DNA of 64,000 nt from a virus. Below the pieces are notes generated by a model. It searched no databases. It was given only the letters and a program-made list of their open reading frames with translations, and was not told the origin of the DNA. This document shows, in pieces, positions 21,091 through 40,631 of the stretch (the first letter of the stretch is position 1; each line of letters opens with the position of its first letter). The DNA lies in the IMG/VR virus record IMGVR_UViG_3300033145_001136, positions 1 to 64,000 of that record; one strand, given 5' to 3'. Made by a program: the position numbers and the translations under genes.

Positions 21091-21249
21091 TTAAGGTTTA
21101 TAGCGATTATTCCTGACCTCTTCGCTGAAACGCGAAAGCGATCGACACTTTTTATTGCAATATAGCTTTTGGTCAAAGTGATAGTTGCTGAAGCAATCTT
21201 CTCGTTTTATTTCAGCTCCACAATATTTACACTGCTTAACAGAAACCAT
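21091..21249 (-). CDS. Small zinc-finger protein (52 aa)
   Basis: Below the ORF-track cutoff: MVSVKQCKYCGAEIKREDCFSNYHFDQKLYCNKKCRSLSRFSEEVRNNRYKP*. Its ATG overlaps the terL stop (TAATG) and it fills the terL-portal gap. Confidence 0.7.
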   Translation of the reverse strand: MVSVKQCKYCGAEIKREDCFSNYHFDQKLYCNKKCRSLSRFSEEVRNNRYKP

Positions 21250-23687: not shown

Positions 23688-23900
23688 TTAATCGTCAATA
23701 ATAACTACGTATTGTAGTAGATTTGTCCACCACACAGCCACGGAAAGTGCCGTATCCTTAGTTTGCCAAGCTGTATTATCGTTATCATCTGTTAATCTAA
23801 TTATCCTATCATATGCTACTAGCCGCACTATCCATATACCAGCCCACTGAGTGTGTCTTGCTACGTGGATATAGCGTTGCTCTCCTGTAATTTCGCACAC
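23688..23900 (-). CDS. Hypothetical protein
   Basis: 70-aa ORF that fills the gap on the coding strand. Confidence 0.45.
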   Translation of the reverse strand: MCEITGEQRYIHVARHTQWAGIWIVRLVAYDRIIRLTDDNDNTAWQTKDTALSVAVWWTNLLQYVVIIDD

Positions 23901-24724
23901 GATTCTATGTCCTTATCTTTCTTCCTTGCCTTTAGAGTACCATCTTCATTTAACCAAGGACGCTGGTACTCTATGTAAATCTCATTATAGTGGTCCGTTC
24001 TACACTTTTTAGAATGGTAAACCTGATTACCATATGAGGGAACAAATAATATATTACATAGAGGATTCTTACAATTTATTGCTTGTTGTACCTTTTTCGG
24101 TTTCTGTGCCTGTTTCTTACGGTACCTACGTAATTTTGCAGCAGCCCACCTACATCGATCATTACAATATTTACGAGTGCTGGTTGGGTTCGCCACCCTA
24201 AATTCGACCTCACAAAATTCATGTGCGCATTTTCTATATGCTGGATAGGATTGATCAAGGATGTATCTACGTAATTTGTTTACCCCGGCTATAACACTGG
24301 CTCGTACCGCCGTCCAGTGAACGTGCCCAATGTCATTACCATCATCATCGAATTTTCTCATTAATTTAGCGATTTTAGAAAATGGCAGACCATCAACATA
24401 TTTAAGATGTAAACATACGCGCTGTCGTTCCGTAAGATAATCGTCACTCTCGAGTAATTCACATAGTGCCTGTTTATATGCCTCTGGCATATACTTAAGA
24501 TCTTTAACCCATTCAGAATTATTAATCGCATGCGCCATAATGTATTCAATTTTATGTTCTGGGTATGGTACTTCTGCAAATTCTGGCTCAGCGTTGTGTA
24601 AACTCGAAAGAAGTTCCTCGACCTCTTCACACACATTACCAGTAACTTCACATTCCTTAAGCCCGGTCTTTTCATCTATGCGTAAGCAATTTTCGCAATT
24701 TATAGACTCTTCTTCTTTAGGCAT
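23861..24724 (-). CDS. Sigma-70 region 4-like HTH regulator with Cys-rich zinc-finger repeats
   Basis: LTERQRVCLHLKYVDGLPFSKIAKLM...TAVRASVIAGVNKLRRY is sigma region 4-like. It is followed by CAHEFC...KYCNDRC and CKNPLC...YHSKKC. Confidence 0.7.
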   Translation of the reverse strand: MPKEEESINCENCLRIDEKTGLKECEVTGNVCEEVEELLSSLHNAEPEFAEVPYPEHKIEYIMAHAINNSEWVKDLKYMPEAYKQALCELLESDDYLTERQRVCLHLKYVDGLPFSKIAKLMRKFDDDGNDIGHVHWTAVRASVIAGVNKLRRYILDQSYPAYRKCAHEFCEVEFRVANPTSTRKYCNDRCRWAAAKLRRYRKKQAQKPKKVQQAINCKNPLCNILFVPSYGNQVYHSKKCRTDHYNEIYIEYQRPWLNEDGTLKARKKDKDIESCAKLQESNAIST

Positions 24725-24961: not shown

Positions 24962-25378
24962 CTAGGTCCCAATGCCGAACGGCAGGCGGAAAGATGCAGC
25001 GATAGCTGGAAGATCCAGGTTAGTTAGGGAATCGGCTGTAGGTGTTTTGGTCTTGAAGGCATTGTTAAGGGACTGAACAGCGGCTGAAATTCCAACCATG
25101 AAAAGTCTCTTATCAAATGGTTCCAGCCAAAACGGGAATTTGATCATATCATCAAGCACCTCGGCTGCGTACTCAATACGATCTTTCTTATCAATCCCCC
25201 CTATTTCAGACCATACATATTCTACCACCGCAGCAACTTTCTGCAGGATTTCCCATATTACCGCAAATCCGTGCAAAAAGTCCTTAAAACCATCAATCTT
25301 GAGAACATCAGCAATCTGATCCTCTGTTTCCTCATTGATCAATAGTTCCTTAATCTTTTCAATGATCTCTGGATTCAT
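24962..25378 (-). CDS. Hypothetical protein
   Basis: 138 aa with a GGAGGT RBS; helical and amphipathic. Confidence 0.7.
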   Translation of the reverse strand: MNPEIIEKIKELLINEETEDQIADVLKIDGFKDFLHGFAVIWEILQKVAAVVEYVWSEIGGIDKKDRIEYAAEVLDDMIKFPFWLEPFDKRLFMVGISAAVQSLNNAFKTKTPTADSLTNLDLPAIAASFRLPFGIGT

Positions 25379-25553
25379 GTGTAGATACCTCCGATTTATG
25401 CCAGTTTAACATATACCCACATTTATTGCACCTATATGGACTACTACCCAAAATATAAGCTATATATAAGTCTCTAGTAATACTATATTTTGTGCGACAC
25501 CTATTACAATATAGCCACTTCGTAAGAATAATCTTATGCATACTATGTTCCAT
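25359..25553 (-). CDS. Small zinc-ribbon protein
   Basis: CNRC...CNKCG; overlaps both neighbours. Confidence 0.55.
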   Translation of the reverse strand: MEHSMHKIILTKWLYCNRCRTKYSITRDLYIAYILGSSPYRCNKCGYMLNWHKSEVSTHESRDH

Positions 25554-26223
25554 ACTCCATAGGGGCTTCTTTGATAATGAGTGCTAAAAGCATCCGGTGC
25601 TTTGTATTTTCGTCTGCGGTTGAGCGCATGATCTCTTCAACGGACCATCCCAGCACATCAGAACTAACAGCCGTACGAATTAAATACTGCAAATCATCTG
25701 CACTAAGAAACTGTCTCCGCATTGGCTCGTGATAACTCCGCAACTTCGGCATAAAGAGTATCACATTATATTTTGCCATCTGTACCGCTTTGGCAATCAA
25801 TGGGGCAGGATCTTCTTCACGCTCTAGCTCATTCATGATTATGACCGTACCAAATTGCCCAAATGGGGTAGCCGTAACGGGGATCTCTTCAAAAAATTTT
25901 CTTTTCATAATTAGATGTGATTCTGGTATCTGCATAGTCCTCTGATTTCTAATACAATCAAACATAGCTTGCTTTGATCCGTCTATTCCAACCACCTTAT
26001 GTCCTAGAGATGCCAAAAAAAGCGCAAATCTACCATCCTCTATGCCAGTAACCAGGATTGGGGATTCTACTGGGTACGTTTCCCATACATGTCGCTCCAC
26101 ATGCATTAGCGGTGGCATTTCTCCCAGTTTTAATGGATGCGCCTGCCTATGTGCCAGTGCTCTTGGGCGCATATAATATGCGTCGGCTGTCTTTGTTTTA
26201 TATTCTATTTTACCATCTACCAT
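25543..26223 (-). CDS. Class I SAM-dependent methyltransferase-like protein (degenerate motif I)
   Basis: ILVTGIEDGRFALFLASLGHKVVGIDGSKQAM and FGTVIIMNELEREEDP. Confidence 0.6.
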   Translation of the reverse strand: MVDGKIEYKTKTADAYYMRPRALAHRQAHPLKLGEMPPLMHVERHVWETYPVESPILVTGIEDGRFALFLASLGHKVVGIDGSKQAMFDCIRNQRTMQIPESHLIMKRKFFEEIPVTATPFGQFGTVIIMNELEREEDPAPLIAKAVQMAKYNVILFMPKLRSYHEPMRRQFLSADDLQYLIRTAVSSDVLGWSVEEIMRSTADENTKHRMLLALIIKEAPMEYGT

Positions 26224-26935
26224 TTCTTATCTCTTCCACTATGGGATCTATCTCACCATACAAAGTGTCAATCGATATCACATTATCTTCCCATTCCATT
26301 GGCACAAATTGCTGCACATCCTTTGAAAGTATGACCGTGCATATACCCTGTGATGCAGCGGCTAGTGCCTCTTCTCCCCTTCTACCGATCACAATGTCCG
26401 ATTGCTTAATATATGCCCATTCCTGTATATAGTCATATGGCTTAGTCGATTCTATTACCTGTACATATGTTGGTAATGCGCCCGTAGGCATTCCGCGATT
26501 CCCCAATATTATAAAATGCAAATCATCGTTAGTCCGCTTAAGTACGTCAATAAGTACTGCAACCCAGTGTAAGGTTGCACATAACGTCGATATAACAAAA
26601 CATATTACTGGGGTATCGAAATCCGCTTGGATTGATACAGGGACCGGTGTATATAGAATAATTTCTTTAGGGATTTTGTGTTTTGGGCTAGTTATACTGG
26701 GATTTATGTATGATTTATGTTTAGTGGCGCTTGTCAACAACGCAACATCAAATATCTCTAGATAATTTACGGTTAGCCATGGAACAGTACTAAACATCGA
26801 TTTTGCAATGGGGAGGATGTTTGGGGAGGTCTCAAGGTCTAACTCTACATCGTCGTCCTGCTCCGCTATACCGCATAGCTTCGCATACAATATGAAAACG
26901 TCTTCTGCGGTGGCTGGGGTTGAGTAGTATATCAT
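26210..26935 (-). CDS. Degenerate GT-B (GT9-like) glycosyltransferase
   Basis: C-terminal IKQSDIVIGRRGEEALAAASQGICTVIL echoes the GT9 'i..ad.vig.DSG..HlA.a.g..tv.l' pattern. Also HWVAVLIDVL...HFIILG. Confidence 0.4.
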   Translation of the reverse strand: MIYYSTPATAEDVFILYAKLCGIAEQDDDVELDLETSPNILPIAKSMFSTVPWLTVNYLEIFDVALLTSATKHKSYINPSITSPKHKIPKEIILYTPVPVSIQADFDTPVICFVISTLCATLHWVAVLIDVLKRTNDDLHFIILGNRGMPTGALPTYVQVIESTKPYDYIQEWAYIKQSDIVIGRRGEEALAAASQGICTVILSKDVQQFVPMEWEDNVISIDTLYGEIDPIVEEIRNGRW

Positions 26936-27669
26936 ATTGACCGTATCTCCTCCACCCATTCACAGATGTCTGGATGTGGATCCCGAAACGCTCGTATTGC
27001 TAAATCTACGAGTTTTTTGTTATTTGCTAGTTTGTGCATTATTGGGTGGCCTATATACGTACGCCACCTATCAAATACTTTCATACTGTCTGCAGTATCG
27101 GCATAATTAAATGCATCGAAACTAGATCCACCACCCTCACGAGTTACTTTAACATATGGCTTAAAGCAGTCTGGTGTAAGGCCCAAATATTCACCTATTT
27201 GTGCCCTATATGCATGCGACATAACCCACCTATTATATGATATTTGCAGCGTATCTATTGGTAAGTATGCTGTACTAATATATTCTTCGCACAGCTCAAG
27301 ATATATGTTTATCGTTCTCTCCGATAGTCGCCCATTATTCCCTTTCATATTAAGCCAACTAGCTGCCCAATTAAATGGATCACGTACCATGACAATATTT
27401 TTTACCTTATCACCATGCTCTGGAACTCTTTTCTGTATTAAGCCTACCTCATCTGGCCAATCAGCAGGTGTCTCTACACTAGTAACAAGTAATTCAACAT
27501 GTTTAGTTGAATGTAAACTATAACTCATCCTCCGTTGCATAGAATACTCATCACCAAAAGCATTATTAAAGTATTGCCACGATCCACCAGAATGGTCAAG
27601 TATCCAGTGAATAATTGGGTGGTGCCCGGAGCGACCCATCGCCCAAACCCTTATGTCATCAAAGTTCAT
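26932..27669 (-). CDS. Sulfotransferase-like P-loop protein (paralog 1)
   Basis: GRSGHHPIIHWI, VRDPFNWAASW, ISYNRW, GGGSSFD, VFDRW. Confidence 0.6.
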   Translation of the reverse strand: MNFDDIRVWAMGRSGHHPIIHWILDHSGGSWQYFNNAFGDEYSMQRRMSYSLHSTKHVELLVTSVETPADWPDEVGLIQKRVPEHGDKVKNIVMVRDPFNWAASWLNMKGNNGRLSERTINIYLELCEEYISTAYLPIDTLQISYNRWVMSHAYRAQIGEYLGLTPDCFKPYVKVTREGGGSSFDAFNYADTADSMKVFDRWRTYIGHPIMHKLANNKKLVDLAIRAFRDPHPDICEWVEEIRSI

Positions 27670-28393
27670 TAGGTAGCTCCGTTAATTTTTGCATATCCAT
27701 ATTGAAAATCTCTAATGATATTTCTTGCATACGCGAATGCGCAGCAAGTCTTTGCATGTATGGGTGTTCTTTGTATAATTTATATCTATTTAGCACGTCC
27801 ATTTGATCTGCTCTTCCTAAATATCGACGTCCATCGAAGCTAGATCCCTTACCAAATAGCGGCACGCCCATATATTGTTTCCAGCACGATTTTCGCAGCC
27901 CAAGCAACTCTCCTAATTGTACGCGATACGCTTCGCTAGTAAACCAATTATTATAATTAATCGGTATAAAAGGCTCTTCTAGTCTAGTTGTTAATCTTAA
28001 GTATTCTCGCGCATACTCCATATAACCAAACATAAACGTGCAATATACTTCGCCGGTATAGGTTTCCGTGTGAGGCCACCATTTCTTAATTGTACTCGCA
28101 AGCGTATTTAAAGGATCTCTCAGTGTTACTATATTTACACTGTGCATCCCGTCTGTCTTATATGTAAATAATTCTGATGGGAATAGGCTACTTTCAATAT
28201 TAACAAGCGCACCCATTTTTTTGTGCTGTGTTATCGTTATGTATTCTGATTTAACTTTATCTAGCCATTCAGTAGTTTGGGCCAAGCGACGCGTATAGTC
28301 AAGAAGGCCATCGTGATGTGTCCATATCCAGTCATTAACAGCATTGTGCCCCGTACGTGGCGGTGCATATACCCTGTAGTCATTATACTTCAT
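27659..28393 (-). CDS. Sulfotransferase-like P-loop protein (paralog 2)
   Basis: PRTGHNAVNDWI, LRDPLNTLAS, INYNNWF, GKGSSFD, VLNRY. Confidence 0.6.
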   Translation of the reverse strand: MKYNDYRVYAPPRTGHNAVNDWIWTHHDGLLDYTRRLAQTTEWLDKVKSEYITITQHKKMGALVNIESSLFPSELFTYKTDGMHSVNIVTLRDPLNTLASTIKKWWPHTETYTGEVYCTFMFGYMEYAREYLRLTTRLEEPFIPINYNNWFTSEAYRVQLGELLGLRKSCWKQYMGVPLFGKGSSFDGRRYLGRADQMDVLNRYKLYKEHPYMQRLAAHSRMQEISLEIFNMDMQKLTELPNEL

Positions 28394-29165
28394 TTAGCAG
28401 ATCTTTCAGTATTGTTCTACTAATGTCCATATCTACTTCATGAACTTTACCATATGTGAACGCCTCATCAACCACAAGATTGATATCAATCTCTTCATCC
28501 AGCGTAATATCAAGCTCGCCAATCATAATTGGGATGTCCACTCCCATATATTTGGATATGCTCGGTAGCAAGTATCCAAGCGCTTTACCATGCGGCACAC
28601 CGTAAAACCCTGTTAAGGGATATGACAAAGCGTGCAATAAATTGGTACCAGTTACTTCGATCAATTCACCAGCGGCATTGCCCAATTTCACAAGAGCAGA
28701 TGGATTAGCGATATACTTTATATCACCCAAAATATCTATAGCCCGATCCACGATTTCAACTGTGGCATTAATAGACCACATACTGTCAAGGCAATGGCTA
28801 ATAACATCATATAATGAGTACCTAAACATATACATGGGCAAATCCGCAGCAAACTCGTCGACTATTTCCACCTGGCTTGGTTTATATCTTCTCACAGAGC
28901 ACTTACGCGGCCCATCCCAGTAAACAGCCCATGACGTTACTGCAGATCCTGCACCCGTTGTTGGATAGCATTTTATTGGGGTTTTTGATAATATCTTTGC
29001 TGTGTCTATCACCGCACCTCCACCTATTGCCACCACCGATTCATAGAAGCCCAATGCAGAAATGTCCGTTGGCGCGGCTTCTACTACAAAAATATGTTCA
29101 AAATCCGCTTCTAAGAATTTCTTTGTAGACTTAGAACAAACTAACAAAGTATCTACCTTGTCCAC
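28383..29165 (-). CDS. Phosphonoacetaldehyde reductase (Fe-containing alcohol dehydrogenase, PhpC/FomC-like)
   Basis: IGGGAVIDTAK, PTTGAGS.VT, DVISHCLDS and HALSYPLT...VPHG (metal ligands). It is coupled to the ppd genes. Confidence 0.8.
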   Translation of the reverse strand: MDKVDTLLVCSKSTKKFLEADFEHIFVVEAAPTDISALGFYESVVAIGGGAVIDTAKILSKTPIKCYPTTGAGSAVTSWAVYWDGPRKCSVRRYKPSQVEIVDEFAADLPMYMFRYSLYDVISHCLDSMWSINATVEIVDRAIDILGDIKYIANPSALVKLGNAAGELIEVTGTNLLHALSYPLTGFYGVPHGKALGYLLPSISKYMGVDIPIMIGELDITLDEEIDINLVVDEAFTYGKVHEVDMDISRTILKDLLNEV

Positions 29166-29617
29166 AATGCCTCCTTTACCTCTACTGTGTTAATTCTACT
29201 ATCCACATCAACCCTGTCTGCTTTACCATCATTAGTTATTTTTATAATTTCCGTCACACCGGGATATTGCCCCTCCAACCTAGAACACTTAAATCCGCCC
29301 ACAGATTCATGGCATCCGTTGTCTAACACATAGACATATAGATTACTAAGGGCGTAATCTCGTATTGTATGCGTTATGCCAAGATGCATCAATAAGGCAG
29401 CGTCTCCGCTAATAACAACTATTTCCTTATCACTATTTAACGCCATACCAAGACCTATACATGGAGCCAACCCCATGCTACCCTGCATATAAAAGATGTT
29501 TTTCCGTAATGGGTACATATTATATGTTGCTCTAGATATGTACCCGGTACTTGTTACATACACCGCATCACCATGTTTATCAAAAATGTATCGTAGTGCT
29601 GCCTCTCTACTAATCAT
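29153..29617 (-). CDS. Phosphonopyruvate decarboxylase, beta (TPP-binding) subunit
   Basis: STGYISR, FYMQGSMG and the TPP motif GDAALLMHLG...LDNGCHESVGG. Confidence 0.88.
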   Translation of the reverse strand: MISREAALRYIFDKHGDAVYVTSTGYISRATYNMYPLRKNIFYMQGSMGLAPCIGLGMALNSDKEIVVISGDAALLMHLGITHTIRDYALSNLYVYVLDNGCHESVGGFKCSRLEGQYPGVTEIIKITNDGKADRVDVDSRINTVEVKEALWTR

Positions 29618-29984
29618 AGCTCACCTCATAGTTACCATATCCCAAAACTACCAGTAAATCCACATCACATCTACCCATTACCTCATGTTGAAACGGAGCC
29701 GTCCTATGTCCAATTATAAGTAACGGCTCGATACCATATGGCATACATAGGCTAGCCAATGGGTTTATAGCGTTACCCAATCCTGAATTTTGCATATACA
29801 CACATGTCTTTTTACCAGCCAATTCTGCGCCAACAGCTATACCTATCGCCTGTGACTCATGCGTAGCTATGACATGCTCCACACCAGAGTCGATGATATC
29901 CTGTATAAATCCTTTTAAGGAACTATCCGGAACCCCGACAAAGAAATCATACCCCTGGTCCATTAATTTCTGTACACTAATCAT
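29610..29984 (-). CDS. Phosphonopyruvate decarboxylase, alpha subunit
   Basis: [42 protein letters not shown]. Confidence 0.88.
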
Positions 29985-31251
29985 TTGGTATCATCTCCAC
30001 GATATCTCTTATTGGCATACATTGTCGGTTCGCTTCAAAGCACCGTCCATGCATTAGGATCACCTTGGCTACGTCTATCATTGCTGGGTAGGCTGCCCTC
30101 AAAAGATGATTCGCATAAATAACCACGCTAACGCCCATCGCCGCAAGTTCTGACTCGAGAATGTAGCCATATGTGGATGGCACTACCACCACCGGTACTT
30201 TACCACTATATTTCTCCATGAATTGGACAATTTCTGTGACCGATTGCTGCTTACTATGTATCATAATCGCATCAGCACCAGCATTAACATATGCCTCTGC
30301 TCTATCCAGCGCATCATCCAGCCCCTTACCCAATATAAAACTTTCTATTCTGGCGATAATCATGAAATCTTCTGTTACCTGCGCACGTTTACCCGCCTGG
30401 ATTTTTTCACAGAACCCCTCTATTGTATCTTGCGTCTGATCGGACGTATTTTCAAATAGAGAATTCCGTTTCAAGCCAATCTTGTCCTCCACAATAGCCG
30501 CAGACACACCAAAACGTTCTAAATTCTTAACCATTGATGTAAAGTGTTCTATTGGACCGCCATTGTCCACATCTACAATCATCGGTTTCGTTGTAACTCC
30601 AAAAATCTCGTTGATGGTATGGTCTATGGTAGTAATGTCGACAATTTGATTATCTGGCTTGCCCTTTGAAGTAGAGTGCGTAAGACTGCTTAACCACATA
30701 CCATCAAATCCATATCCATCAAATTCAGTTTTTTCCACAATAAGCCCCGTCAACCCATTATGGACCTCAAGAATGCGCACAGTTTCTTTGGATTCAATTA
30801 AACGTCTTAATGTTCCCATACGTACGCCGGGAGTTGTGCCCAATTCTTTTATAGCCTTATGAAGTTGTGTAGACGAAATGCCTTCGGTATATGGTATTTC
30901 TATTAATTCGCCACCCCAATTGGTCAATATATCTATAACTCTTTCCCTTGTTTTTCTTTGCGGCCCCTCTTTCCAATCGTCACCATGTACCACAAACGCC
31001 GGTTGTAACAAAAGTAAATTTTCGGTATAGTCCAACGTATCTTGCGGCATAACCTCGTCCACATACCTAATACTCTTAATGATCGTTTCTCTCTGTCCAT
31101 AAGTCAATGCCGGGAGTCGCTTATATGACGCTATTGCTTCATCAGTCAATAGCCCAACTATAACTTCTCCATATTCACTTGCTTCCCTGAGAACATTGAT
31201 GTGCCCCTGGTGAATTAGGTCAGCGCTCATGCCAACATAGACTAAGCTCAT
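29977..31251 (-). CDS. pepM: Cytidylyltransferase-phosphoenolpyruvate mutase fusion (Fom1/AepX-type)
   Basis: N-terminal DLIHQGH (HxGH), VHGDDW and YTEGISST. The C-terminal domain has the PepM signature [10 protein letters not shown] plus WLSSL, DVDNGG, IARIES and YANHLLRA. Confidence 0.95.
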
Positions 31252-32105
31252 AACAACTCCTCCAGTACATCAACGAATCTGCTTGCTGCAACCCCTTGAT
31301 ACTCACACAACATCTTTGAATGCCTCAACCGTTCTTCCTCTAAATAAAGTGGGTCATTAATATACCGTATCACCGCCATTTCCATCTCTTCTTGCGAATG
31401 TGCAACAATCGCGGCCTCATTAGCACACCCAGAAATATGAGAGTTGTCAACCCCCCATCGCGCATCCCCAATTAATATAGTCGGTATATTCAACACTATT
31501 GACTCAAGGTAGATCGAAGAATAATCAGATATTACCACTCCAGCCTCCATCATGTCTTCGTTTACAGATCTTGGATTAACACTATATGCCGGATGTGGTC
31601 GCACGCGAATACAAAATCCATATCTTTCCAAAGCCATAATCGCTATTTTATCGCCAGCATACACATTAGGCGATTTTTTATGATGTGTTGGTGCATATAG
31701 AGCCCATTTACCATTTATGTTGTTAAATAGTTTATCTAGCCTTGGCATGCCAACCACCTTAATCGACAAGCCATGCATCTCATGCCACTCCGCCCAAGCC
31801 TCGGAGAATGTAAAAATAAAATCGGAGTTTTTCTGGAGATCTGCTTTAAACTTTGGTTCGGTATAGAAAGCATTTTGTGGAACCACCGGGAACGCATGCC
31901 CTATCCAAACGCCCCTACCACCCATTCTGGTGCATGCCTCATCTGGTTGTATTGTAAAATCCGCATCGTCCCAATATGCCCTATAATCATCACATATTAT
32001 GGATTCGTGCCCTCGCCTAAGTAACTCCTCATGAATGTCTGTACAATATTCTTCATGAAATTTAAAAACCGAACAGTTATGTATAACTTTCATTGTGTTC
32101 TCCAC
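31248..32105 (-). CDS. CDP-glycerol glycerophosphotransferase (TagB/TagF) family protein
   Basis: [33 protein letters not shown]. Confidence 0.75.
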
Positions 32106-33211
32106 AATGACTCATAATATATGTGATCATCAATTGACGGATCTGTTACATCATCTTCTATCCAACTTTGTAACTCCTCTACCTCGCTTGTTAGTAGCTC
32201 CCAGTCCAGTTTTTCAGATTTACAATTTTTTGCTATTAATTTATCTAAATCACCAGGTACGAAATCACGAGTCAAATGTTGAAAAAATAGTCTATGATTT
32301 TTATGCAAAAAATAGCCACCGGGCTTGGAAATCTTGTTTATCAATGCTACATAATTAAGTACTACCTCATTGGGCATTTCCGTTAGGCTATGGGAATTAA
32401 ATACTAGGTCGGCAATGTTATCCTGGAAATAGGCGGGATCATATGCGCATCCAGAGGGCAATAACAAAATATCATTATCACCATCATCTTGCTCTCCAAA
32501 TAAAACAATTTTTTTATCGGGTAGGGCATGTATTAAGAAAAATGCGGAAAGAACACCTACTTGTGGCAAGTCGATTGATATATATTGCCCATCAAAATCG
32601 TTAAACTTAAATAAGTGATATGGGAAAGAACCCCACCCACCACCAATTTCAACTATTGTGTTTTTGTTGTCCGCTAAAATATTGCTAATCTGGTATGCAT
32701 TGTATGACTGACGCATCGCTGCTCTTATCAGCACACCTTTCCCATCAGTTGATTCGTACCCAAAAAAGTTCCCAAGGCCAATAGGGTAAAATAACGACTC
32801 CTCACTAATCACACCACTTGTCAGCTCTCTCCATTTTTCAATTTGCCATAATGTTGCGTCCACAAACCAATCAAACCCATATTGCTTAACAATTTTTATA
32901 TCATCATATAAGGATAATCCTTGTGTTGCTGGTTTTCGCCCAAAATTGAACAAGAATTTGCTAAGTGGAGCAATATCACCAAATTTAATTAGCCTATCTA
33001 TCGCAGTTATTATATTTGATGGATGCCACAGATCTGTTCCCACTGGTATAGATACCAAATCGGTATTTAAGTGCGGCATATCTTGCCCATATGCCATAGA
33101 CACATTGTAAAAATTGATAAGCCTTTCATACGTTTCATCTGATAAACTACTGTTTATCTTCGTTCGACCATGTGAGGCCGTTAACCCATCAACAGTTATT
33201 ATTTTGTCCAT
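32090..33211 (-). CDS. Putative sugar O-methyltransferase
   Basis: IVEIGGGWG, YISIDLP, DLVFNSHSLTEM...YV. Confidence 0.75.
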   Translation of the reverse strand: MDKIITVDGLTASHGRTKINSSLSDETYERLINFYNVSMAYGQDMPHLNTDLVSIPVGTDLWHPSNIITAIDRLIKFGDIAPLSKFLFNFGRKPATQGLSLYDDIKIVKQYGFDWFVDATLWQIEKWRELTSGVISEESLFYPIGLGNFFGYESTDGKGVLIRAAMRQSYNAYQISNILADNKNTIVEIGGGWGSFPYHLFKFNDFDGQYISIDLPQVGVLSAFFLIHALPDKKIVLFGEQDDGDNDILLLPSGCAYDPAYFQDNIADLVFNSHSLTEMPNEVVLNYVALINKISKPGGYFLHKNHRLFFQHLTRDFVPGDLDKLIAKNCKSEKLDWELLTSEVEELQSWIEDDVTDPSIDDHIYYESLWRTQ

Positions 33212-33924
33212 AATGCTTTCTGATAATCGGAATAAAATGTGACCACGTTTTTGTAGTATGGTTCCAATTTAAGTCCTAGTTTCACCAATGTGTTCGTAAA
33301 TGGGACTTCTCCAGCCCATACATGATGGTCTACATTGGTTTCTTCTTCTGGCCCTTTATAGTGTGGAATACACCCATGAACTGCAACAATTTCATCTATG
33401 TATTCCCTACTGGTACAGCCAGCTCCACCATGCACGTGCTCTGTTGATCTACCCCTATGGCCAAGCTCCCCATGTACAGCTACATATGCAATCAACTGCT
33501 CACTATTCAATTGCCCTATACACCCCATTATACAATGTTGCTCAATAAGTAATTGGTCATCCTCTAAAAAAATCCAGTACTCATATTGTTCCCGCAACTG
33601 TTTAAATGCGTAATTATATCCCCCAAAAGCTCTCCCAACATTCTCCCTGGTTAATATAACCATTTCCCCATTCTTTGTTTTTGTTCCATTTATTGATGCA
33701 AGATATTTATTCCCTGGTGTATACCCAATATCGTTATTAACGATAATGGTATCAACGCATATGCCATTATCTACCGATTGCTCTAGCTGATATATTACTT
33801 TTAACATCTCCAAAATACCTTCAGCATCTAATCCCTCTTGACTATGCGAAGGCCACGTGCGCACCTCTTTTTTCCTGTTAGCAAAAGTTGTTACAATTAC
33901 TTTTGCCACATTTGCGTTCGACAT
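33199..33924 (-). CDS. GT-A fold glycosyltransferase-like protein
   Basis: IIVNND, RENVGRAFGGYNYAF, YWIFLEDD. Confidence 0.6.
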   Translation of the reverse strand: MSNANVAKVIVTTFANRKKEVRTWPSHSQEGLDAEGILEMLKVIYQLEQSVDNGICVDTIIVNNDIGYTPGNKYLASINGTKTKNGEMVILTRENVGRAFGGYNYAFKQLREQYEYWIFLEDDQLLIEQHCIMGCIGQLNSEQLIAYVAVHGELGHRGRSTEHVHGGAGCTSREYIDEIVAVHGCIPHYKGPEEETNVDHHVWAGEVPFTNTLVKLGLKLEPYYKNVVTFYSDYQKALWTK

Positions 33925-33927
33925 GCC

Positions 33928-34527
33928 CTACCTCTTCACACAAATGGTGATTGATGGATATGGCCTAATAACAACTGCATCATAAATTGTGCCAATTAAT
34001 GGGTGTCCGTTTATTACTGGTTGAATTTTGGGTTTATTAAATTTCTTCATCCAGGGTACCATATCGCGTTTCTCACTCCCACCCTCGAATATTAGTACCC
34101 CGCCAGTAGTTAGCTTATACTCTGCATCTACCAAAAATCTATCAAATACAGCTCCATTATTGGATATGTCGACATGCATAAAATCAATTGTGTTATCTTC
34201 ATAGTCGTCTAGCACACTGTATGCATCTTTTTGAATTAAATCTACCCAATCCTGCAATGCTACAGCATCGATACTCAATTGTGTCTCACTCTGGAGCGTA
34301 TGGTGATATGCATACTTATCCCATAAATCATATGCATATAGATGCCCATAGTTGTTATCTCTCAATGCTGCAGCTATAAAAATAGTACTATATCCACCCA
34401 GTGTACCTATTTCTACGCACCTACTTGGATTTATGCAACGTAGTAATGAATAGAACATTTGTCCATAATTATTACGCTTATAAGAAGATGTTATTAAGTT
34501 TGCCTGTGCTATTACGTCATCTATCAT
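33928..34527 (-). CDS. Class I SAM-dependent methyltransferase (Methyltransf_24-like)
   Basis: CVEIGTLGGYST, YAYDLW, IDFMHVD, LTTGGVLIF. Confidence 0.8.
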   Translation of the reverse strand: MIDDVIAQANLITSSYKRNNYGQMFYSLLRCINPSRCVEIGTLGGYSTIFIAAALRDNNYGHLYAYDLWDKYAYHHTLQSETQLSIDAVALQDWVDLIQKDAYSVLDDYEDNTIDFMHVDISNNGAVFDRFLVDAEYKLTTGGVLIFEGGSEKRDMVPWMKKFNKPKIQPVINGHPLIGTIYDAVVIRPYPSITICVKR

Positions 34528-34528
34528 C

Positions 34529-35710
34529 TTACCAACCCTTCTTAATCATTTCGACTATATATTCCGCATCTTCTGATGTTACCCAATGCCCCACCGGGAT
34601 ACTAATTTGGTGCTTATCACAATATTCCAAGTTATGTAAGCATTCTTTTGATTTAAATTCACTAAATACCGCATATTTATCATTCCTGACATGTACAACA
34701 CTCGTATGTATATTTCTATCTCGCATCGCCCTAATAAAGTCATCACGTTTTTCAACAAATATAGTATATAAATAGTATGCAGACTTTGTGCCTACTTTCA
34801 TTTGCTCATGTAGCGGGACCGGTAGCGACAAAATCCCCGGCACATTCATTAGTTTGTCATCATAAAACATAGCGTTAAGTCTGCGTATTTCTAAATTCTC
34901 ATCAAGATATGGTAATTGTGATAGCCCAATTGTTGCAGAAACATCATTCATGTGCCCTTTCAGCCCAACCTCCATTATTTCCCAATCGTCGTGCCCTGTA
35001 AGTGCTTTTCTTCTATATCGCCTATCAATCCCATACCATCTCAAAACTCTGATATGTTCATAGTCTTCTGCCTTATATGTAGTAACTAGCCCACCATCTA
35101 TAGATGTCATTTGCTTAACAGCTTGTAGGGAAAACATGCAAAAGTCTGAGTGTTTGCCGAGCCCATAATTGCACACGCCCACAGGACGGCCATGATAGTA
35201 TGCCCCATTCGCATGTGCGGCATCCTCTATAATATTGATATATTGTCCAGGGCCTTGGCTCACAGCAGCTCTAAGCCTATACATATCAATTGGATATCCG
35301 CCCCAATGTACAGCGGCCACTGCTTTTGTCTTGTTGGTAATTAATTGTGACACTGAGTTTGGGTCTATATTACCTGTCTCTGTATCAACATCTGCCCAAA
35401 CTATTTTTGCTCCCGCTCGTAGAAACGGTAATGTCCCCGCAGTACACGTCAATGGGGACATTAATATCTCGTCCCCAGGTGCAATATCTAGCAACATAGC
35501 TATTAAATCAAGCCCTACTGTCCCGGAACACACAGCATTGACAAATGTGGTATCAAACCTCTCTGCGAATTTTCCCTCTAGCTCCTTCACCTTTGGCCCC
35601 TCGCCAATCCATCCACTCTCGAGTACTGGCCTTAATGCATCTAAAACTTCATCTACAGGAGGCATAAACACCTTAAGCAGTGGTATCATTTCTTTTGGCT
35701 TATACGACAT
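34529..35710 (-). CDS. DegT/DnrJ/EryC1/StrS family PLP-dependent sugar aminotransferase
   Basis: SGWIGEGP, SGTVGL, VHWGGYP, IEDAAHA, FSLQAVKQMTSIDGG (PLP Lys), LRWYGI. Confidence 0.92.
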   Translation of the reverse strand: MSYKPKEMIPLLKVFMPPVDEVLDALRPVLESGWIGEGPKVKELEGKFAERFDTTFVNAVCSGTVGLDLIAMLLDIAPGDEILMSPLTCTAGTLPFLRAGAKIVWADVDTETGNIDPNSVSQLITNKTKAVAAVHWGGYPIDMYRLRAAVSQGPGQYINIIEDAAHANGAYYHGRPVGVCNYGLGKHSDFCMFSLQAVKQMTSIDGGLVTTYKAEDYEHIRVLRWYGIDRRYRRKALTGHDDWEIMEVGLKGHMNDVSATIGLSQLPYLDENLEIRRLNAMFYDDKLMNVPGILSLPVPLHEQMKVGTKSAYYLYTIFVEKRDDFIRAMRDRNIHTSVVHVRNDKYAVFSEFKSKECLHNLEYCDKHQISIPVGHWVTSEDAEYIVEMIKKGW

Positions 35711-35712
35711 TA

Positions 35713-36528
35713 TTAATCTCCTAGTAGTTCACCAAGTCTAAACACTTCGTTTTCAAATTGCCTTGTTGAAAATCCCCATTTTTCCTCAAACATCTTATGT
35801 GCCACTTGCCTTGCGGACCATGCCCATTTGCTTGTAGTGGCCTCTACAAAATGGTACACAAGGCATTCGGGCACATTACACATTCTCTCTGGATGTCCTT
35901 TGTGGAATCTGTTATAAAATTGTACCACCCAATCAGGGTCAGAACAAAATCCTGGCCAAAATCTTGTATCCCACCCACCGAGATCAATCCAATCCTTTGT
36001 CCTAACTACCTGTGGCTCCATTGTTATTTTTCTGTCTTGTTTAATATTATTATCCACAAACCAAGTTAATAAAGCTTGCTCTCTAAAGGTTTCTATGTAA
36101 CGCCCAAAGTCTTTTTGAATAGTTATATCACCCCTGGAAGGCACAGGCTCAATCAGCGATAAAGCTCTCCAAATACCCGGTTCATCCGGATCGGTTATAC
36201 TTTCCGCCAGCGCTTTATCCCATCCTGGTAAATAATACATATCGTTGTCTGTCGGCAATACAAAATCAACTTCTATCTTCGGTGTTAATACCTCATACGC
36301 CAAAGGAATACCCTGGTTATCAGGAGAACATGTCCAATCAAAATGATGCCATTCTTCCTCAAGACACTCAGCGGCAAATCTATCTTTGTCAGAAAATTCG
36401 TTAAAATGTACCAAAAATTGATGATTATCTGGCCATTCGCTATTCTCTATTATGCTCCGTGCCGACAGCTTAACAAGGTCTGGTCGATTCAGTGATGGAA
36501 CTAATATTGCTACACTAATTTCATTCAT
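35713..36528 (-). CDS. Glycosyltransferase family 2
   Basis: ILVPSLNR, NQGIP, TDNDMYYLPGWD, GGWDTRFWPGFCSDPDW, VYHF. Start taken as ATG 36528 (ATGA overlap). Confidence 0.8.
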   Translation of the reverse strand: MNEISVAILVPSLNRPDLVKLSARSIIENSEWPDNHQFLVHFNEFSDKDRFAAECLEEEWHHFDWTCSPDNQGIPLAYEVLTPKIEVDFVLPTDNDMYYLPGWDKALAESITDPDEPGIWRALSLIEPVPSRGDITIQKDFGRYIETFREQALLTWFVDNNIKQDRKITMEPQVVRTKDWIDLGGWDTRFWPGFCSDPDWVVQFYNRFHKGHPERMCNVPECLVYHFVEATTSKWAWSARQVAHKMFEEKWGFSTRQFENEVFRLGELLGD

Positions 36529-37391
36529 GGCAAATCCCTTATGGTCTCTATCCAAGTTTCTATAGGGTGTAGGTGCCCAAATATTTGTATTGCCATATTC
36601 GTGAGTTCTTTGTCTTCAATGAGCTCTTTTAATTGTTTTGCCACACGTGGATCTTGCCAACGCTCCAGTACACGCATATTGTTAGCTTTCCCATCGTAAT
36701 CAAATTTATTGAAACTGCTCCCACCACCTCTCCATGGTATGTCATTATATGGGAGTGCGCATCCTGGTGCTAGATCAAATTTTTCCCCTATTTTTGCCCT
36801 ATACTCCGCGCTAAGGAACCACTCATTAAATAAAATAGGAATCAGTTGATATTCTGTTACATTTGTTTCCCCCAAAATTTCCCGACACAAACTTTTATAA
36901 CATTCTATATATTTTGGATTATCTAATACATCGTTCTTGTGCATAAGTCTACTAGCTGTCCAATTAAATGGATCTCGCAATATAAGGATATCGTACACAC
37001 GCCTGCTAGCTCCCCTCTTCCAGTATTTATGTCGTGCTACCCCCTTGTCTCCACGAAATAGTTCAGTTCTTTCAGTTGGTTGGTTCAGTTCTTGAATGGC
37101 TTCCCCTAACGAAAATTCTAGTTCTATGGAATACATGAAAGTCTCGCGATAAGGGAAACCATTCAAGATATCTAATGCACTTGTGATAGTTGTATGTGAA
37201 AGTTCTGCTCTGCATTCTCTCTGTGTATACCCCCGAAGCACTGAACAATTTCTAAGAGCCTTCTCCCTATCGAATACCCCCTGTATATGCATACATGGGA
37301 TCTGTGCATGGTATTCAATCCAATGCGTTACGGCCTGATGCCCGCCCCTACTTAAGGCAAACATCCTTAATTCTCGTTCATTAAATATCAT
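36525..37391 (-). CDS. Sulfotransferase-like P-loop protein (paralog 3)
   Basis: SRGGHQAVTHWI, LRDPFNWTASR, ILFNEWF, GGGSSFN, VLERW. Confidence 0.6.
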   Translation of the reverse strand: MIFNERELRMFALSRGGHQAVTHWIEYHAQIPCMHIQGVFDREKALRNCSVLRGYTQRECRAELSHTTITSALDILNGFPYRETFMYSIELEFSLGEAIQELNQPTERTELFRGDKGVARHKYWKRGASRRVYDILILRDPFNWTASRLMHKNDVLDNPKYIECYKSLCREILGETNVTEYQLIPILFNEWFLSAEYRAKIGEKFDLAPGCALPYNDIPWRGGGSSFNKFDYDGKANNMRVLERWQDPRVAKQLKELIEDKELTNMAIQIFGHLHPIETWIETIRDLP

Positions 37392-38182
37392 AAATACTCC
37401 ACATAATTGCCTTCATCATCAAATGTTGGGCCATGTTCCGCATGAGGCTGCATTTCGATACTCATTTTTCTTACAGTGGACCCACATTCTTTAGCAAACA
37501 TCTGTTCATATTTATGTACCCCCTTTATAAATCTGGCCCTACCCTGTGGTCGCGTTGTAAGCCTAAAATGATAAATAAACGATGCTGGATGATTTAGTTG
37601 TAACCTACCGCGTTTTTTACAATATTTATATGCATTGTATAACAAATAAAATTCGCCAAGAAAACACCGTTCATCAAACCCACCTATTTTCAAAAAATCT
37701 TCTGTCCGCATCGCGGCAGGCAAATACGAAGCAACATATCTGACCGGATGCATTCTATGTGCAAAATCTTTTTTAAGTCGCTCTTCCTCAAATGTATCGA
37801 TGGTTCTACCATAATCGCCGACAATCGATCTATTAGGACGATCAGGTTCAATTTGTGTTGGTGCCCTCCATGCACCAATACCGGTTAATTCATCCGTAAT
37901 ACAGTCCCACCCAGGTAACATATACATATCTACATCACAAATAAACATCGTTTCATATTTCACGTCCTGAGCCATTGTGTTGTAGGCCACACCAACGCCT
38001 ACGTTATTCAGTTGTCGGTAACATTGTACATCTTTTGAGTCACACCAATCTGCAGTGCCATCTTTACTACCATTATCCCACACCATTAATTCATATGGGC
38101 CAACAGTATGCTCTTCTAGCGATTTATGTAACAATTTAAGATAATCTAACTGATTATGGCATGGTACTAGTACGCTAATCAT
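37388..38182 (-). CDS. Glycosyltransferase family 2
   Basis: ISVLVPCHN, WDNGSKDGT, CDVDMYMLPGWD, IGGFDE, IYHF. It is a paralog of 35713-36528. Confidence 0.85.
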   Translation of the reverse strand: MISVLVPCHNQLDYLKLLHKSLEEHTVGPYELMVWDNGSKDGTADWCDSKDVQCYRQLNNVGVGVAYNTMAQDVKYETMFICDVDMYMLPGWDCITDELTGIGAWRAPTQIEPDRPNRSIVGDYGRTIDTFEEERLKKDFAHRMHPVRYVASYLPAAMRTEDFLKIGGFDERCFLGEFYLLYNAYKYCKKRGRLQLNHPASFIYHFRLTTRPQGRARFIKGVHKYEQMFAKECGSTVRKMSIEMQPHAEHGPTFDDEGNYVEYL

Positions 38183-39405
38183 AATTTAGATTTTATCCAT
38201 TTTGGCATTGTCTCCACATACTCTTGTCCATCGAAATAGTATGATCGGTCATGCTCTTCTTTTGTTTTTAATCGCTGGTGCCACCCGGTCATAATATTAC
38301 CACTCCTGGCAAATGTCTGCTGCGATCTCCATAGGTGCCGCTCAAGACACCAATCGTAATCTACCCTATGTAAGTGCACAAAAATCAGGTCTTCGTCTGT
38401 TTCTATGTCCATCGCTATATGTATTCCATCTATTAATTGTGATGCTGCTTTATACGCAAGTCCCCAATAAATAGGGATTTTAGTTATTGCGGGCTTATCC
38501 GCATGATCACCAGCACCTCCTACCCGTGTGGTTGCATCTCGCCTATACCAATACTTGCGCTGCTTCAAAATAGGTTTTGTAAAATCTAATGCTGGTTCCT
38601 CATCTGGATTATGCCACACTTCATAACACACATTTCTAATAACATCAGCCTCCATTTTTTCAACATAATCCATCAGGTCAGCATATTTATCAGAATTAGG
38701 TATCAAAAACTCATCTGTTTCCACAAATATGACGGTCTCATATTCTTTAAGCAATTCGTGCTGGAATTGATTAACCATGTCCACCATCCAGCGACGAGCA
38801 AAGTACTCCTCATTCTTAATTAGAATCGTGTTACATAATAAATCATCAGTTGACCCATCGTTACTTTGATGATCAAGTATGTACACATTCTCATTACCAA
38901 ATATCTTTGCATAATAATCAACCCATATTGGTAAGATTACTGCCTCATTTTTAGATATAGTAAATACAGCACACTTACGTTTCTGTGTCTTAAATATTCC
39001 AAGCGATTTGGCATCAATTATTTCCGTAATCTTCGGAGTAGGCTTTGCATCATCCTGTAATTCAACTTTGGCAATCGTTCTGGCTGCTAAAGATTTGTCA
39101 TGTTTGGTTTCGTTTTGTGCTTGTTTAAACGAATTTGGCACAACACCCTTAGCAATTTGTTTAAGTGTGTCAAGCATTAAATTATATTTAGATTTAAACT
39201 CCGCCCCTGATTTTGTACCAACATCTGGTATGCTAAGTCTTATTTGCAACGTTAAATCTATTGCAGACCCTTCCTCGGAAACCTCGATTTTTTTAATAAT
39301 ATCAGATTTTTCCATTGCTGGCTTCAGTGCTTTTTTCGCTGTTTTCTTTATTCCTTTCTTATTATCGCTTGGCAAATGTCTTGCCTTACCCCCTGAAATT
39401 GGCAT
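38179..39405 (-). CDS. GT2-like glycosyltransferase (Glyco_tranf_2_4-like) with a basic N-terminal extension
   Basis: TISKNEAVILPIWVDYY, ILDHQSNDGST, IFVETDEF, VHLH. The first ~140 aa are Lys-rich. Confidence 0.75.
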   Translation of the reverse strand: MPISGGKARHLPSDNKKGIKKTAKKALKPAMEKSDIIKKIEVSEEGSAIDLTLQIRLSIPDVGTKSGAEFKSKYNLMLDTLKQIAKGVVPNSFKQAQNETKHDKSLAARTIAKVELQDDAKPTPKITEIIDAKSLGIFKTQKRKCAVFTISKNEAVILPIWVDYYAKIFGNENVYILDHQSNDGSTDDLLCNTILIKNEEYFARRWMVDMVNQFQHELLKEYETVIFVETDEFLIPNSDKYADLMDYVEKMEADVIRNVCYEVWHNPDEEPALDFTKPILKQRKYWYRRDATTRVGGAGDHADKPAITKIPIYWGLAYKAASQLIDGIHIAMDIETDEDLIFVHLHRVDYDWCLERHLWRSQQTFARSGNIMTGWHQRLKTKEEHDRSYYFDGQEYVETMPKWIKSKL

Positions 39406-39407
39406 TC

Positions 39408-40340
39408 TTATACCTCTCTATACATTATTTGGTTAAATATACTATGTGGAGTTAGTTCATTCATACACACATATTCACTACAAGTATCCCACCTAGAAGT
39501 GTACTGACATGGCGCACAATCTAAGCTAACTCGCAAAATCTCTGCATTTGGTTCTAGTGGTCTATTTTTAACAAGTGATGTGGGCCCCCATATGAAAAAG
39601 GTTTTTATTCCCAATACTGATGCCATATGTCCTGGCCCACAATCATTCGCTATAACATAGTCGCATTGTGACAGTACATGAGAAGTTTGAAACAAAGTAT
39701 ATTTTCCTATACGATTATGTATAACCGCAAAAGCATCCCCCTCTATGGTGGCATTATAGGCATGGTAGTCGTCAAAATCCTCGTGTTCTCCCCCAATAAT
39801 AATAACTTTGTGTCCATCGCGCTGCAATAGCTCTGCAAGTTCTGCAAAATGGGGCCATTTCTTACGTCCCCACTGCCAATCTGAGCGACCACCAGGTATT
39901 AAGCCGACTATTTTCTTAAATGGTTCTTGTCCATCTTCATAATCGAACGTTTCCCCACTATTCGATGTGAGTAGTGCCATGTTTCTTGGTGGCATTTCCC
40001 CTACATACCCCAACAATCTTACCGCATCTAGATTGGATTCTGTTTCATGGATCTGTGTAACCCTATCTCTCGGTGCCCTTACTATGCGATCGTATTTGTA
40101 TCCTTTTAATTCCTCATCAGCATGAAAAATGGATTGCACCACTAAGTCATACTGTGTATGTGATGGTTGCTCACCGGTTTTGTATGTATTATTACACAAA
40201 CCGATCCATAATTCAGGAAATTCTGTGAGCACATCAATACTATTAGATGGAGCAGGGAACACCATGTGTAGCGCAGCTACTGCTGGAGAAGCGTTAAGAT
40301 TATTCCCTATGCCCGATACAGAATGGTATAATATCTTCAT
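39408..40340 (-). CDS. Glycosyltransferase family 9 (heptosyltransferase-like)
   Basis: SGIGN, HETESNL, GLIPG....RKKWPHFAELA, IANDCGPGHMAS.LG, IWGPT, CAPC...C....CM. Confidence 0.88.
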   Translation of the reverse strand: MKILYHSVSGIGNNLNASPAVAALHMVFPAPSNSIDVLTEFPELWIGLCNNTYKTGEQPSHTQYDLVVQSIFHADEELKGYKYDRIVRAPRDRVTQIHETESNLDAVRLLGYVGEMPPRNMALLTSNSGETFDYEDGQEPFKKIVGLIPGGRSDWQWGRKKWPHFAELAELLQRDGHKVIIIGGEHEDFDDYHAYNATIEGDAFAVIHNRIGKYTLFQTSHVLSQCDYVIANDCGPGHMASVLGIKTFFIWGPTSLVKNRPLEPNAEILRVSLDCAPCQYTSRWDTCSEYVCMNELTPHSIFNQIMYREV

Positions 40341-40385: not shown

Positions 40386-40631
40386 TTACCAAATGTTGGG
40401 AGCTGGCCTACTAGCTTTCTCCTCTTCTTTCTCATCCTCTTCATCAACGAGAGGCGTAACCTCATGGATATCCATAGAAACCGGCTCGTCCTCGAGAATT
40501 GGTTCGCTATCCTTAAGAATCTTTTTTGCCTCCGCAATCAATAGTGCAAATGCATTTTTACACGTCTTGAATGCCATCGGCGTATTCATTCCAGCCACTT
40601 TTTTCACAAATACTTCGAACTTGTCTTCCAT
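40386..40631 (-). CDS. Small acidic hypothetical protein
   Basis: 81 aa with a TAATG overlap with the upstream gene and a GGAG RBS. Confidence 0.6.
   Translation of the reverse strand: MEDKFEVFVKKVAGMNTPMAFKTCKNAFALLIAEAKKILKDSEPILEDEPVSMDIHEVTPLVDEEDEKEEEKASRPAPNIW

Follow-up and report, generated by a model that had tools for sequence, protein, structure and literature searches.

Can a tailed phage make a phosphonate, activate it and hand it to a glycan with enzymes of its own? The question is raised by a cassette of five genes at 28383-32105 of the DNA analysed here, which is the first 64 kb (hereafter, the window) of a single virus record of 102,947 bp, IMG/VR virus record IMGVR_UViG_3300033145_001136. 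A first-pass annotation of the window had described these overlapping genes as a complete module for the synthesis, activation and transfer of 2-hydroxyethylphosphonate (HEP), and all five lie where it placed them, on the minus strand. In our reading, to which we assign a probability of about 0.65, the cassette represents, in miniaturised form and carried by a phage, the pathway by which bacteria make and transfer cytidine monophosphate-HEP (CMP-HEP); we infer its chemical steps, the HEP end group and the acceptor.

The route would start from host phosphoenolpyruvate (PEP), which the PEP mutase domain of a fusion protein would turn into phosphonopyruvate. A two-subunit, thiamine pyrophosphate (TPP)-dependent phosphonopyruvate decarboxylase (Ppd) would then yield phosphonoacetaldehyde, thus pulling the unfavourable mutase equilibrium forward, and a compact iron-dependent alcohol dehydrogenase (Fe-ADH) would reduce the aldehyde to HEP. 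The N-terminal, Fom1-type cytidylyltransferase (CyTase) domain of the same fusion would join HEP and CMP into CMP-HEP. Finally, a small TagF-fold enzyme, translationally coupled just upstream, would use CMP-HEP as donor and place its phosphonyl group on the hydroxyl of a sugar within a glycan.

The five cassette genes and their predicted enzymes

The cassette reads as follows, in the order of transcription:

31248..32105, minus strand: putative TagF-fold transferase (PF04464, fold and motifs)
29977..31251, minus strand: predicted Fom1-type CyTase-PEP mutase fusion (PF01467 and PF13714, TIGR02320)
29610..29984, minus strand: predicted Ppd alpha, 124 amino acids (aa) (TPP_enzyme_N, PF02776; TIGR03297)
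29153..29617, minus strand: predicted Ppd beta, 154 aa (TPP_enzyme_C, PF02775; TIGR03297)
28383..29165, minus strand: predicted Fe-ADH, 260 aa (PF25137, TIGR03405)

Adjacent genes overlap by 4-13 nt (8 nt between pepM and Ppd alpha). The enzyme families named in the first-pass annotation are all present, and each protein keeps the residues that define its family.

The fusion carries in one open reading frame (ORF) a cytidylyltransferase at residues 1-137 (PF01467, 4e-12 over residues 9-130) and a PEP mutase at residues 148-424 (PF13714, 1.6e-55 over residues 148-398). The mutase domain reaches 372.3 bits with TIGR02320, above the equivalog cut-off of 319.55, while the phosphonopyruvate hydrolase and methylisocitrate lyase models give far lower scores on it, and it holds the Ppm-specific EDK-x5-NS motif ([10 protein letters not shown], residues 255-264). 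In its match to the PEP mutase 5unc (1e-48), the segments VDVDNG, ARIES and IHSK are aligned and [25 protein letters not shown] is visible in the alignment. The Fom1-type assignment of the CyTase domain, already proposed from the first pass, is borne out by its match to the CyTase of Fom1 (5x3d; E 2.1e-55, with 85 of the 135 aligned residues identical, about 63%), as against only 1e-11 to the glycerol-3-phosphate cytidylyltransferase 1coz; the HQGH and GISST motifs, of the HxGH nucleotidyltransferase type, are visible in the alignment. By its predicted activities, the product of 29977-31251 is thus a Fom1-type bifunctional cytidylyltransferase and PEP mutase. Homologues of PepM are numerous in metagenomes (about 8000).

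The decarboxylase is predicted to be split in two. Both halves score best with the Ppd model TIGR03297, the alpha half (PF02776, 9.6e-9) at 110.2 bits and 1e-31 as compared to 79 bits with sulfopyruvate decarboxylase alpha, and the beta half (PF02775, 1.6e-9) at 93.8 bits and 1e-26 as compared to 81 bits with sulfopyruvate decarboxylase beta, so that the Ppd model outscores the ComD/ComE models by 31 and 12 bits, respectively. The split falls in the roughly 45-aa inter-domain stretch of the cellular 375-aa enzyme, and some 30 further residues are gone, which leaves the pair without about 75 residues of the TIGR03297 model. The TPP-activating Glu is kept in the alpha half (THESQAIG).

The dehydrogenase is likewise shortened: some 110 residues are missing, at the N-terminus and in loops. 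It starts at a GTG preceded by the Shine-Dalgarno sequence AAGGAGG, passes the cut-off of PF25137 (31.3 bits; cut-off 27), falls below that of PF00465 (24.8 versus 31.3), and has as its best NCBIfam model TIGR03405 (Phn_Fe-ADH, 3e-19). The glycines of the GGG nucleotide loop (G48-G50) and the metal ligands D120, H124, H178 and H192 are invariant in 32 sequences, a full-length cellular homologue among them, and the AF2 model (pLDDT 93.7) covers both domains of the fold, with a Foldseek TMq of 0.84 to 1o2d (E 1.6e-16). Metagenomic homologues of the short ADH number about 480, and all 120 among the matches listed are of 234-274 aa; its nearest ESM Atlas clusters are 93-100% viral. The gene 28383..29165 would therefore encode a compact group-III iron ADH, a candidate phosphonoacetaldehyde reductase in the role of PhpC or FomC.

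The first gene of the cassette had been labelled TagF-like on what is a marginal Pfam match (PF04464, 23.7 bits versus a cut-off of 22.1), a label now backed by fold, motifs and gene association. Its ORF is of 285 aa, but translation probably begins at the ATG at 32093, giving 281 aa; this codon overlaps the upstream stop as ATGA and is preceded by GGAG. The AF2 model (pLDDT 93.6) has TagF and TarL enzymes as its top 10 Foldseek matches (TMq 0.63-0.71), the best including TagF 3l7j and TarL 8va1, with TagF-like capsule polymerases also among the best matches. A profile of the family finds Cps3D at 1.2e-12, TarL at 1e-8 and TagF at 3e-6. The protein shares with these three the GT-B-like fold and its nucleotide-binding half, where the motifs YAPT, HP (with the invariant H171) and DYSS are aligned; however, it is only 281-285 aa long, without the additional N-terminal and membrane-associating regions found in those 580-1150-aa enzymes, and its predicted donor is a CMP-phosphonate instead of the cytidine diphosphate (CDP)-polyol of TagF and TarL. 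In TagF, the residue aligned with H171 is the His of segment RMHYL, which we take to be H584, and the nearly invariant H70 of the phage protein is a candidate for the second catalytic His.

Homologues of this protein are rare: only 43 cluster representatives among 1.8 billion, mostly of about 280 aa, and three contigs in IMG/VR. All three of these contigs also carry a CyTase-PepM, which adjoins the TagF-like gene on two near-identical giant-virus contigs (L100/L101) and lies 7 kb away, with a split Ppd present, on the third, a phage contig. Moreover, a hidden Markov model (HMM) built from the PF04464 proteins that stand beside cellular pepM genes matches, among the phage proteins, only the TagF-like one (1e-8). 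The product of 31248..32105 is therefore a candidate CMP-HEP:glycan phosphonyl transferase, and it is the gene association that points to this donor.

Relatives of the cassette in cells and viruses

The pathway itself is a known bacterial one. The Fom1, Fom2 and FomC proteins of Streptomyces wedmorensis, which act early in fosfomycin synthesis, include the same fusion architecture and carry out the chemistry from PEP to CMP-HEP that is predicted here. On the other hand, the phage has no equivalents of Fom3, Fom4 and FomD, its Ppd is split and about 100 aa shorter than Fom2, its ADH is about 110 aa shorter than FomC, and its cassette is phage-borne and coupled to a TagF-fold transferase and glycan genes. 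Closer counterparts are the cassettes of Bacteroidota, Patescibacteria, Pseudomonadota and others, for which 80 cellular loci were compared. The order fusion, Ppd, ADH is identical, being common to 70-80 of the 80, and the PepM fusions are 59-63% identical to that of the phage, whereas the cellular enzymes are full-size, with Ppd as one 375-aa protein and an ADH of about 370 aa. In these loci, LicD (35/80) or a PF04464 protein (about 19/80) is found nearby, directly beside the cassette in the examples read, which indicates that a transferase of this kind is a normal partner of the cassette; LicD, the commoner one, is absent from the phage. In 11 of the 80 loci a DegT/DnrJ/EryC1 aminotransferase directly follows the ADH (for example, L081:5167-6285), a recurrent pairing that may reflect an amino-sugar acceptor or some unrecognised role of DegT in phosphonate tailoring.

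A split Ppd combined with a short ADH turned up on viral contigs, whereas not one of the 80 cellular loci had this form. Ten IMG/VR contigs (L001-L010) carry the compact cassette. Its four genes there are 49-70% identical to those of the window and follow the same order, and the Ppd split point and ADH deletions are shared as well; in comparison, the phage Ppd and ADH are 26-51% identical to the cellular enzymes. Such conservation argues that the short enzymes are not pseudogenes, and the recurrence of the cassette argues for selection rather than decay. The only one of these contigs examined for phage type (G001; 94 kb, 51% complete by CheckV, GC content 0.33) belongs, by its helicase, ribonucleotide reductase and PolB matches, to a distant T4-like phage, with a PolB 46% identical to that of the Microcystis phage Mel-JY01. 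The compact cassette is thus found in at least two unrelated phage types. A phrog_2 terminase search of the IMG/VR records gave no match, as did a Gp23 search whose own control was silent and which is consequently uninformative. In a quick PepM tree, the window copy groups with the viral copies and two Patescibacteria rows (SH-aLRT 98), though on a long branch, so no donor or direction of transfer is drawn from it.

Other viral loci hold parts of this machinery. A 117-kb IMG/VR contig (3300013111_000325; L012:9989-11184) has a stand-alone CyTase, 55% identical to the window domain, directly followed by a short ADH-like gene (35% identical); the two may serve to activate a different alcohol, or else rely on the host for a precursor. 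The two giant-virus contigs mentioned above (L100:4624-8747 and L101, from the IMG/VR metagenome-assembled genome (MAG) GVMAG-M-3300021958-32; GC 24%, with a TFIIB gene nearby) show the CyTase-PepM divergently adjacent to the TagF-like homologue, and then homologues of the DegT aminotransferase and of a methyltransferase of the window; tblastn with the window proteins found no Ppd or ADH within 6 kb. Among cultured phages, Vibrio phage Va2 encodes a 434-aa protein annotated as PEP mutase in GenBank (L098:3908-5212; MW073017.1 109638-110942), which is 31% identical to the window mutase domain, has EDK-x6-NS and not EDK-x5-NS, and lies two genes downstream of a gene for a 'thiamine pyrophosphate-binding protein'; it may belong to a divergent phage phosphonate or related pathway. 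Two unannotated INPHARED records of 'Bacteriophage sp.' from human faeces (MT837901.1 and MT836947.1; 6.6 and 8.2 kb) contain full-length CyTase-PepM genes about 50% identical to that of the window, and are too short to tell phage from Bacteroidales DNA.

In full-text searches of the literature, no description of a PEP-mutase pathway in a tailed phage came up. The one survey of Ppm that covered viruses detected it in a single giant-virus MAG, while the RefSeq viruses and 364 huge-phage genomes yielded none (Li and Horsman 2022, PMC8942020). The cluster of that MAG, of a nucleocytoplasmic large DNA virus (NCLDV), is also a virus-encoded phosphonate biosynthesis beside amino-sugar genes, which its authors read as that of a viral phosphonoglycan, although it differs in belonging to a eukaryotic virus, in its Ppm-Ppd fusion and in following the 2-aminoethylphosphonate (AEP) branch (PMC8942020). 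The first-pass remark that such a pathway is unusual in a phage thus holds for the literature and not for metagenomes, where the compact cassette recurs on IMG/VR contigs. The window copy adds another phage backbone, unrelated to the first, together with the direct coupling of a TagF-fold transferase to pepM and the sulfotransferase-like paralogues described below.

The surrounding glycan genes, the likely acceptor and rival readings

The cassette is part of a chain of 20 genes running from 40340 to 24962, which abut or overlap with gaps of at most 3 nt and are preceded by a gap of 290 nt. Apart from the cassette, the chain holds the following genes, those upstream (32090..40340) being given first and those downstream (24962..28393) last:

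39408-40340, minus strand: family 9 glycosyltransferase (GT9)
38179-39405, 37388-38182 and 35713-36555, minus strand: family 2-type glycosyltransferases (GT2)
36525-37391, minus strand: sulfotransferase-like gene
34529-35710, minus strand: DegT aminotransferase
33928-34527, minus strand: methyltransferase
33199-33924, minus strand: gene with no assigned family
32090-33211, minus strand: NanM-like sugar O-methyltransferase
27659-28393 and 26932-27669, minus strand: two sulfotransferase-like paralogues
26210-26959, minus strand: gene with no assigned family and one hydrophobic segment
25543-26223, minus strand: weakly methyltransferase-like gene (UbiG-like match, 0.0019)
within 24962..28393, minus strand: two small ORFs

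The first-pass inventory was right on the five cassette genes and passed over the DegT aminotransferase, 2.4 kb upstream of them. The three sulfotransferase-like proteins (about 245-290 aa) are paralogous by phmmer (1e-16 to 1e-32) and share the motifs RxGH and RDPxNxxAS. They have no Pfam match, and a profile of the trio found nothing meaningful among PDB sequences; in the ESM Atlas, their structure neighbours are sulfotransferase families (TM 0.63-0.70) and their feature neighbours are 87-93% viral. By these motifs and neighbours, they are probably sulfotransferases of the 3′-phosphoadenosine 5′-phosphosulfate type acting on the same glycan. The codon usage of the cassette (r 0.87, where random phage gene sets give 0.93 +/- 0.03 with a minimum of 0.80) and its composition are in line with the rest of the phage. 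Promoters and terminators predicted by a scan were not enriched over shuffled sequence (59 versus 65.8 and 15 versus 10.9, respectively).

The acceptor glycan would be built or tailored by the neighbouring GT2, GT9, DegT, methyltransferase and sulfotransferase-like proteins, and could sit either on a phage structural protein before assembly or on a lipid-linked envelope precursor of the host. No multi-pass membrane protein was found in the block, in which no protein has multiple hydrophobic segments and neither a flippase nor a polymerase is encoded, so the acceptor is most likely reached in the cytoplasm. Of the two, virion proteins are slightly favoured, given that the packaging and structural genes come shortly downstream of the block.

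Several observations weigh against the reading of the cassette as a CMP-HEP synthesis and transfer pathway. The Ppd halves, at 110.2 and 93.8 bits, stay below the TIGR03297 equivalog cut-off of 312.5, and the Fe-ADH reaches 69 bits where that of TIGR03405 is 423.7; such scores are expected for shortened proteins, and substrate specificity therefore rests on context. The TPP motif of Ppd beta is GDA...DNG in place of GDG-x-NN, that is, GDA/DN instead of GDG/NN, with the Asp and the second Asn kept, and is identical in three viral copies. The ten contigs with the compact cassette have no detectable TagF-like homologue within 10 kb, so that the cassette does not always come with this transferase, and the contig with the stand-alone CyTase (L012) has no homologue of the window PepM domain or Ppd within about 10 kb. 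Lastly, the aldehyde could be drawn off by the DegT aminotransferase that the operon encodes, and the record is only about 66% complete.

This DegT protein is at the heart of the best-surviving alternative, by which the end group would be an aminophosphonate, either AEP or an N-methylated form, with DegT (34529-35710) transaminating phosphonoacetaldehyde, free or CMP-linked, and the adjacent methyltransferase modifying the product. The giant-virus contigs, where DegT and methyltransferase homologues accompany CyTase-PepM and the TagF-like gene and no Ppd or ADH was found within 6 kb, would suit this view, as would the 11 of 80 cellular loci with DegT directly after the ADH and the fact that AEP is the commonest phosphonate branch (PMC8942020). 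However, the best matches of DegT are nucleotide-sugar aminotransferases (PseC, 211 bits; ArnB, 192 bits), amination of the aldehyde would leave a conserved and intact reductase without a purpose, and the CyTase shows about 63% identity to the HEP-specific domain of Fom1. The known AEP transaminase is a class-V enzyme, and none is encoded in the record. We hence regard an aminophosphonate end group as unlikely.

More improbable still is that HEP or CMP-HEP serves as an intermediate of a small diffusible phosphonate, for instance an antibiotic akin to fosfomycin, methylphosphonate or hydroxymethylphosphonate, and not as a glycan decoration. Fosfomycin synthesis does begin with Fom1, Fom2 and FomC, both MpnS and HepD act on HEP, and the later genes could lie off a contig that is 66% complete. 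However, the cassette is embedded in, and translationally coupled to, glycosyltransferase and sugar-tailoring genes, and a TagF-fold transferase is coupled to pepM. In addition, the 103-kb record encodes no radical-SAM (Fom3-type), cupin (HppE/HepD/MpnS-type), class-V aminotransferase or LicD protein, LicD having been sought among the phage proteins both with an HMM of the cellular neighbours and with the Pfam model. The absence of the late fosfomycin genes and of an AEP transaminase, on which the first-pass annotation had based its preference for HEP over an antibiotic or AEP, was thus confirmed, and this gene content fits HEP as the predicted end group.

Just as doubtful is a sulfonate or polyol-phosphate chemistry, in which a sulfopyruvate decarboxylase would work with a sulfoacetaldehyde reductase or a glycerol-phosphate dehydrogenase, and the CyTase/TagF-like pair would make and transfer a CDP-alcohol. 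In its favour, the Ppd model leads the sulfopyruvate decarboxylase models by only 12-31 bits, the structural neighbours of the Fe-ADH include the sulfoacetaldehyde reductase 6jko, TagF-family enzymes normally use CDP-glycerol or CDP-ribitol, and the L012 contig pairs a CyTase with a short ADH-like gene where PepM and Ppd were not found within about 10 kb. Yet a PEP mutase above its equivalog cut-off, with the EDKx5NS motif and fused to the CyTase, has no role in such pathways, the Ppd halves and the ADH score best on the Ppd and phosphonate-cluster models, respectively, and the gene order is that of cellular phosphonate cassettes. The least probable explanation, an assembly chimera or host DNA joined to the phage contig, draws on the record being a single metagenomic contig with no terminal repeats, and is countered by uniform GC content and GC skew across the window, by 20 genes on one strand in an unbroken overlapping chain, by a cassette codon usage within the range of random phage gene sets, and by the split-Ppd/short-ADH form, seen on viral contigs and in 0/80 cellular loci.

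If the CMP-HEP reading is true, viruses would join the phosphonate producers, so far sought among cells, through a phage-encoded route to an activated phosphonate; enzymology would gain very small versions of Ppd and its reductase, and the poorly defined step that attaches phosphonates to glycans would have a candidate. Should the acceptor be the virion, this would be a new phage surface chemistry, relevant to adsorption, stability, grazing or immune recognition. A broader proposal, which we offer tentatively and with the odds somewhat against it, is that tailed phages of at least two unrelated lineages, relying entirely on soluble enzymes of their own, furnish their virions or the infected cell with a glycan that bears phosphonyl and methyl groups and perhaps sulfate. 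In that case, C-P compounds would have an unrecognised biological source in cells infected by viruses, and the small TagF-fold protein would represent phosphonate transferases of a new type. Phosphonates are a large and poorly sourced pool of organic phosphorus that fuels aerobic methane production in the sea (PMC8931226).

The phage backbone

As the first-pass annotation had noted, phage terminase and replication genes bracket the block, which sits between a DnaE-type polymerase/SbcC module and the terminase and portal genes. The phage hallmarks are:

44025-47465, minus strand: DnaE-like polymerase
40631-44080, minus strand: SbcC-like gene
21249-22991, minus strand: large terminase subunit (TerL)
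19167-21086, minus strand: portal

An HK97-like head-protease/major-head fusion gene at the left end of the window, a primase-helicase gene and an apparently intein-bearing ribonucleotide reductase gene are likewise present, and all the ORFs taken as genes in the window are on the minus strand. The record, a single metagenomic contig, is classed as linear by IMG/VR and has no terminal repeats, with a completeness of about 66% (CheckV). Both GC skew and GC content are uniform, the latter at 0.38-0.45 once past the first 2 kb.

Megablast of the region 24-40 kb against INPHARED gave no match. TerL has no relatives in INPHARED (tblastn) or in IMG/VR (TerL pattern scan), and the viral relatives of the polymerase are only 27-32% identical, which indicates that the phage is, on present sequence comparisons, a member of a poorly sampled lineage. 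It differs from the T4-like cassette phages in its DnaE-type polymerase, its HK97-like head-protease fusion, the giant ORF after the portal and its GC content (41% versus 32%).

Three further genes of the backbone deserve mention. Directly after the portal gene lies a single ORF of 4766 aa (4874-19174). Between the glycan block and the terminase, a 287-aa protein (23861-24724) is weakly similar to sigma-70 region 4 (Pfam, 0.0019; NCBIfam ECF sigma, 0.007-0.009) and may be a late-gene regulator of the phage. Finally, the ribonucleotide reductase ORF (51376-56343, 1655 aa) is matched by the reductase models in two separated stretches, and its extra segments match intein, HNH and helicase-associated PHROGs, which suggests that it carries one or more inteins.

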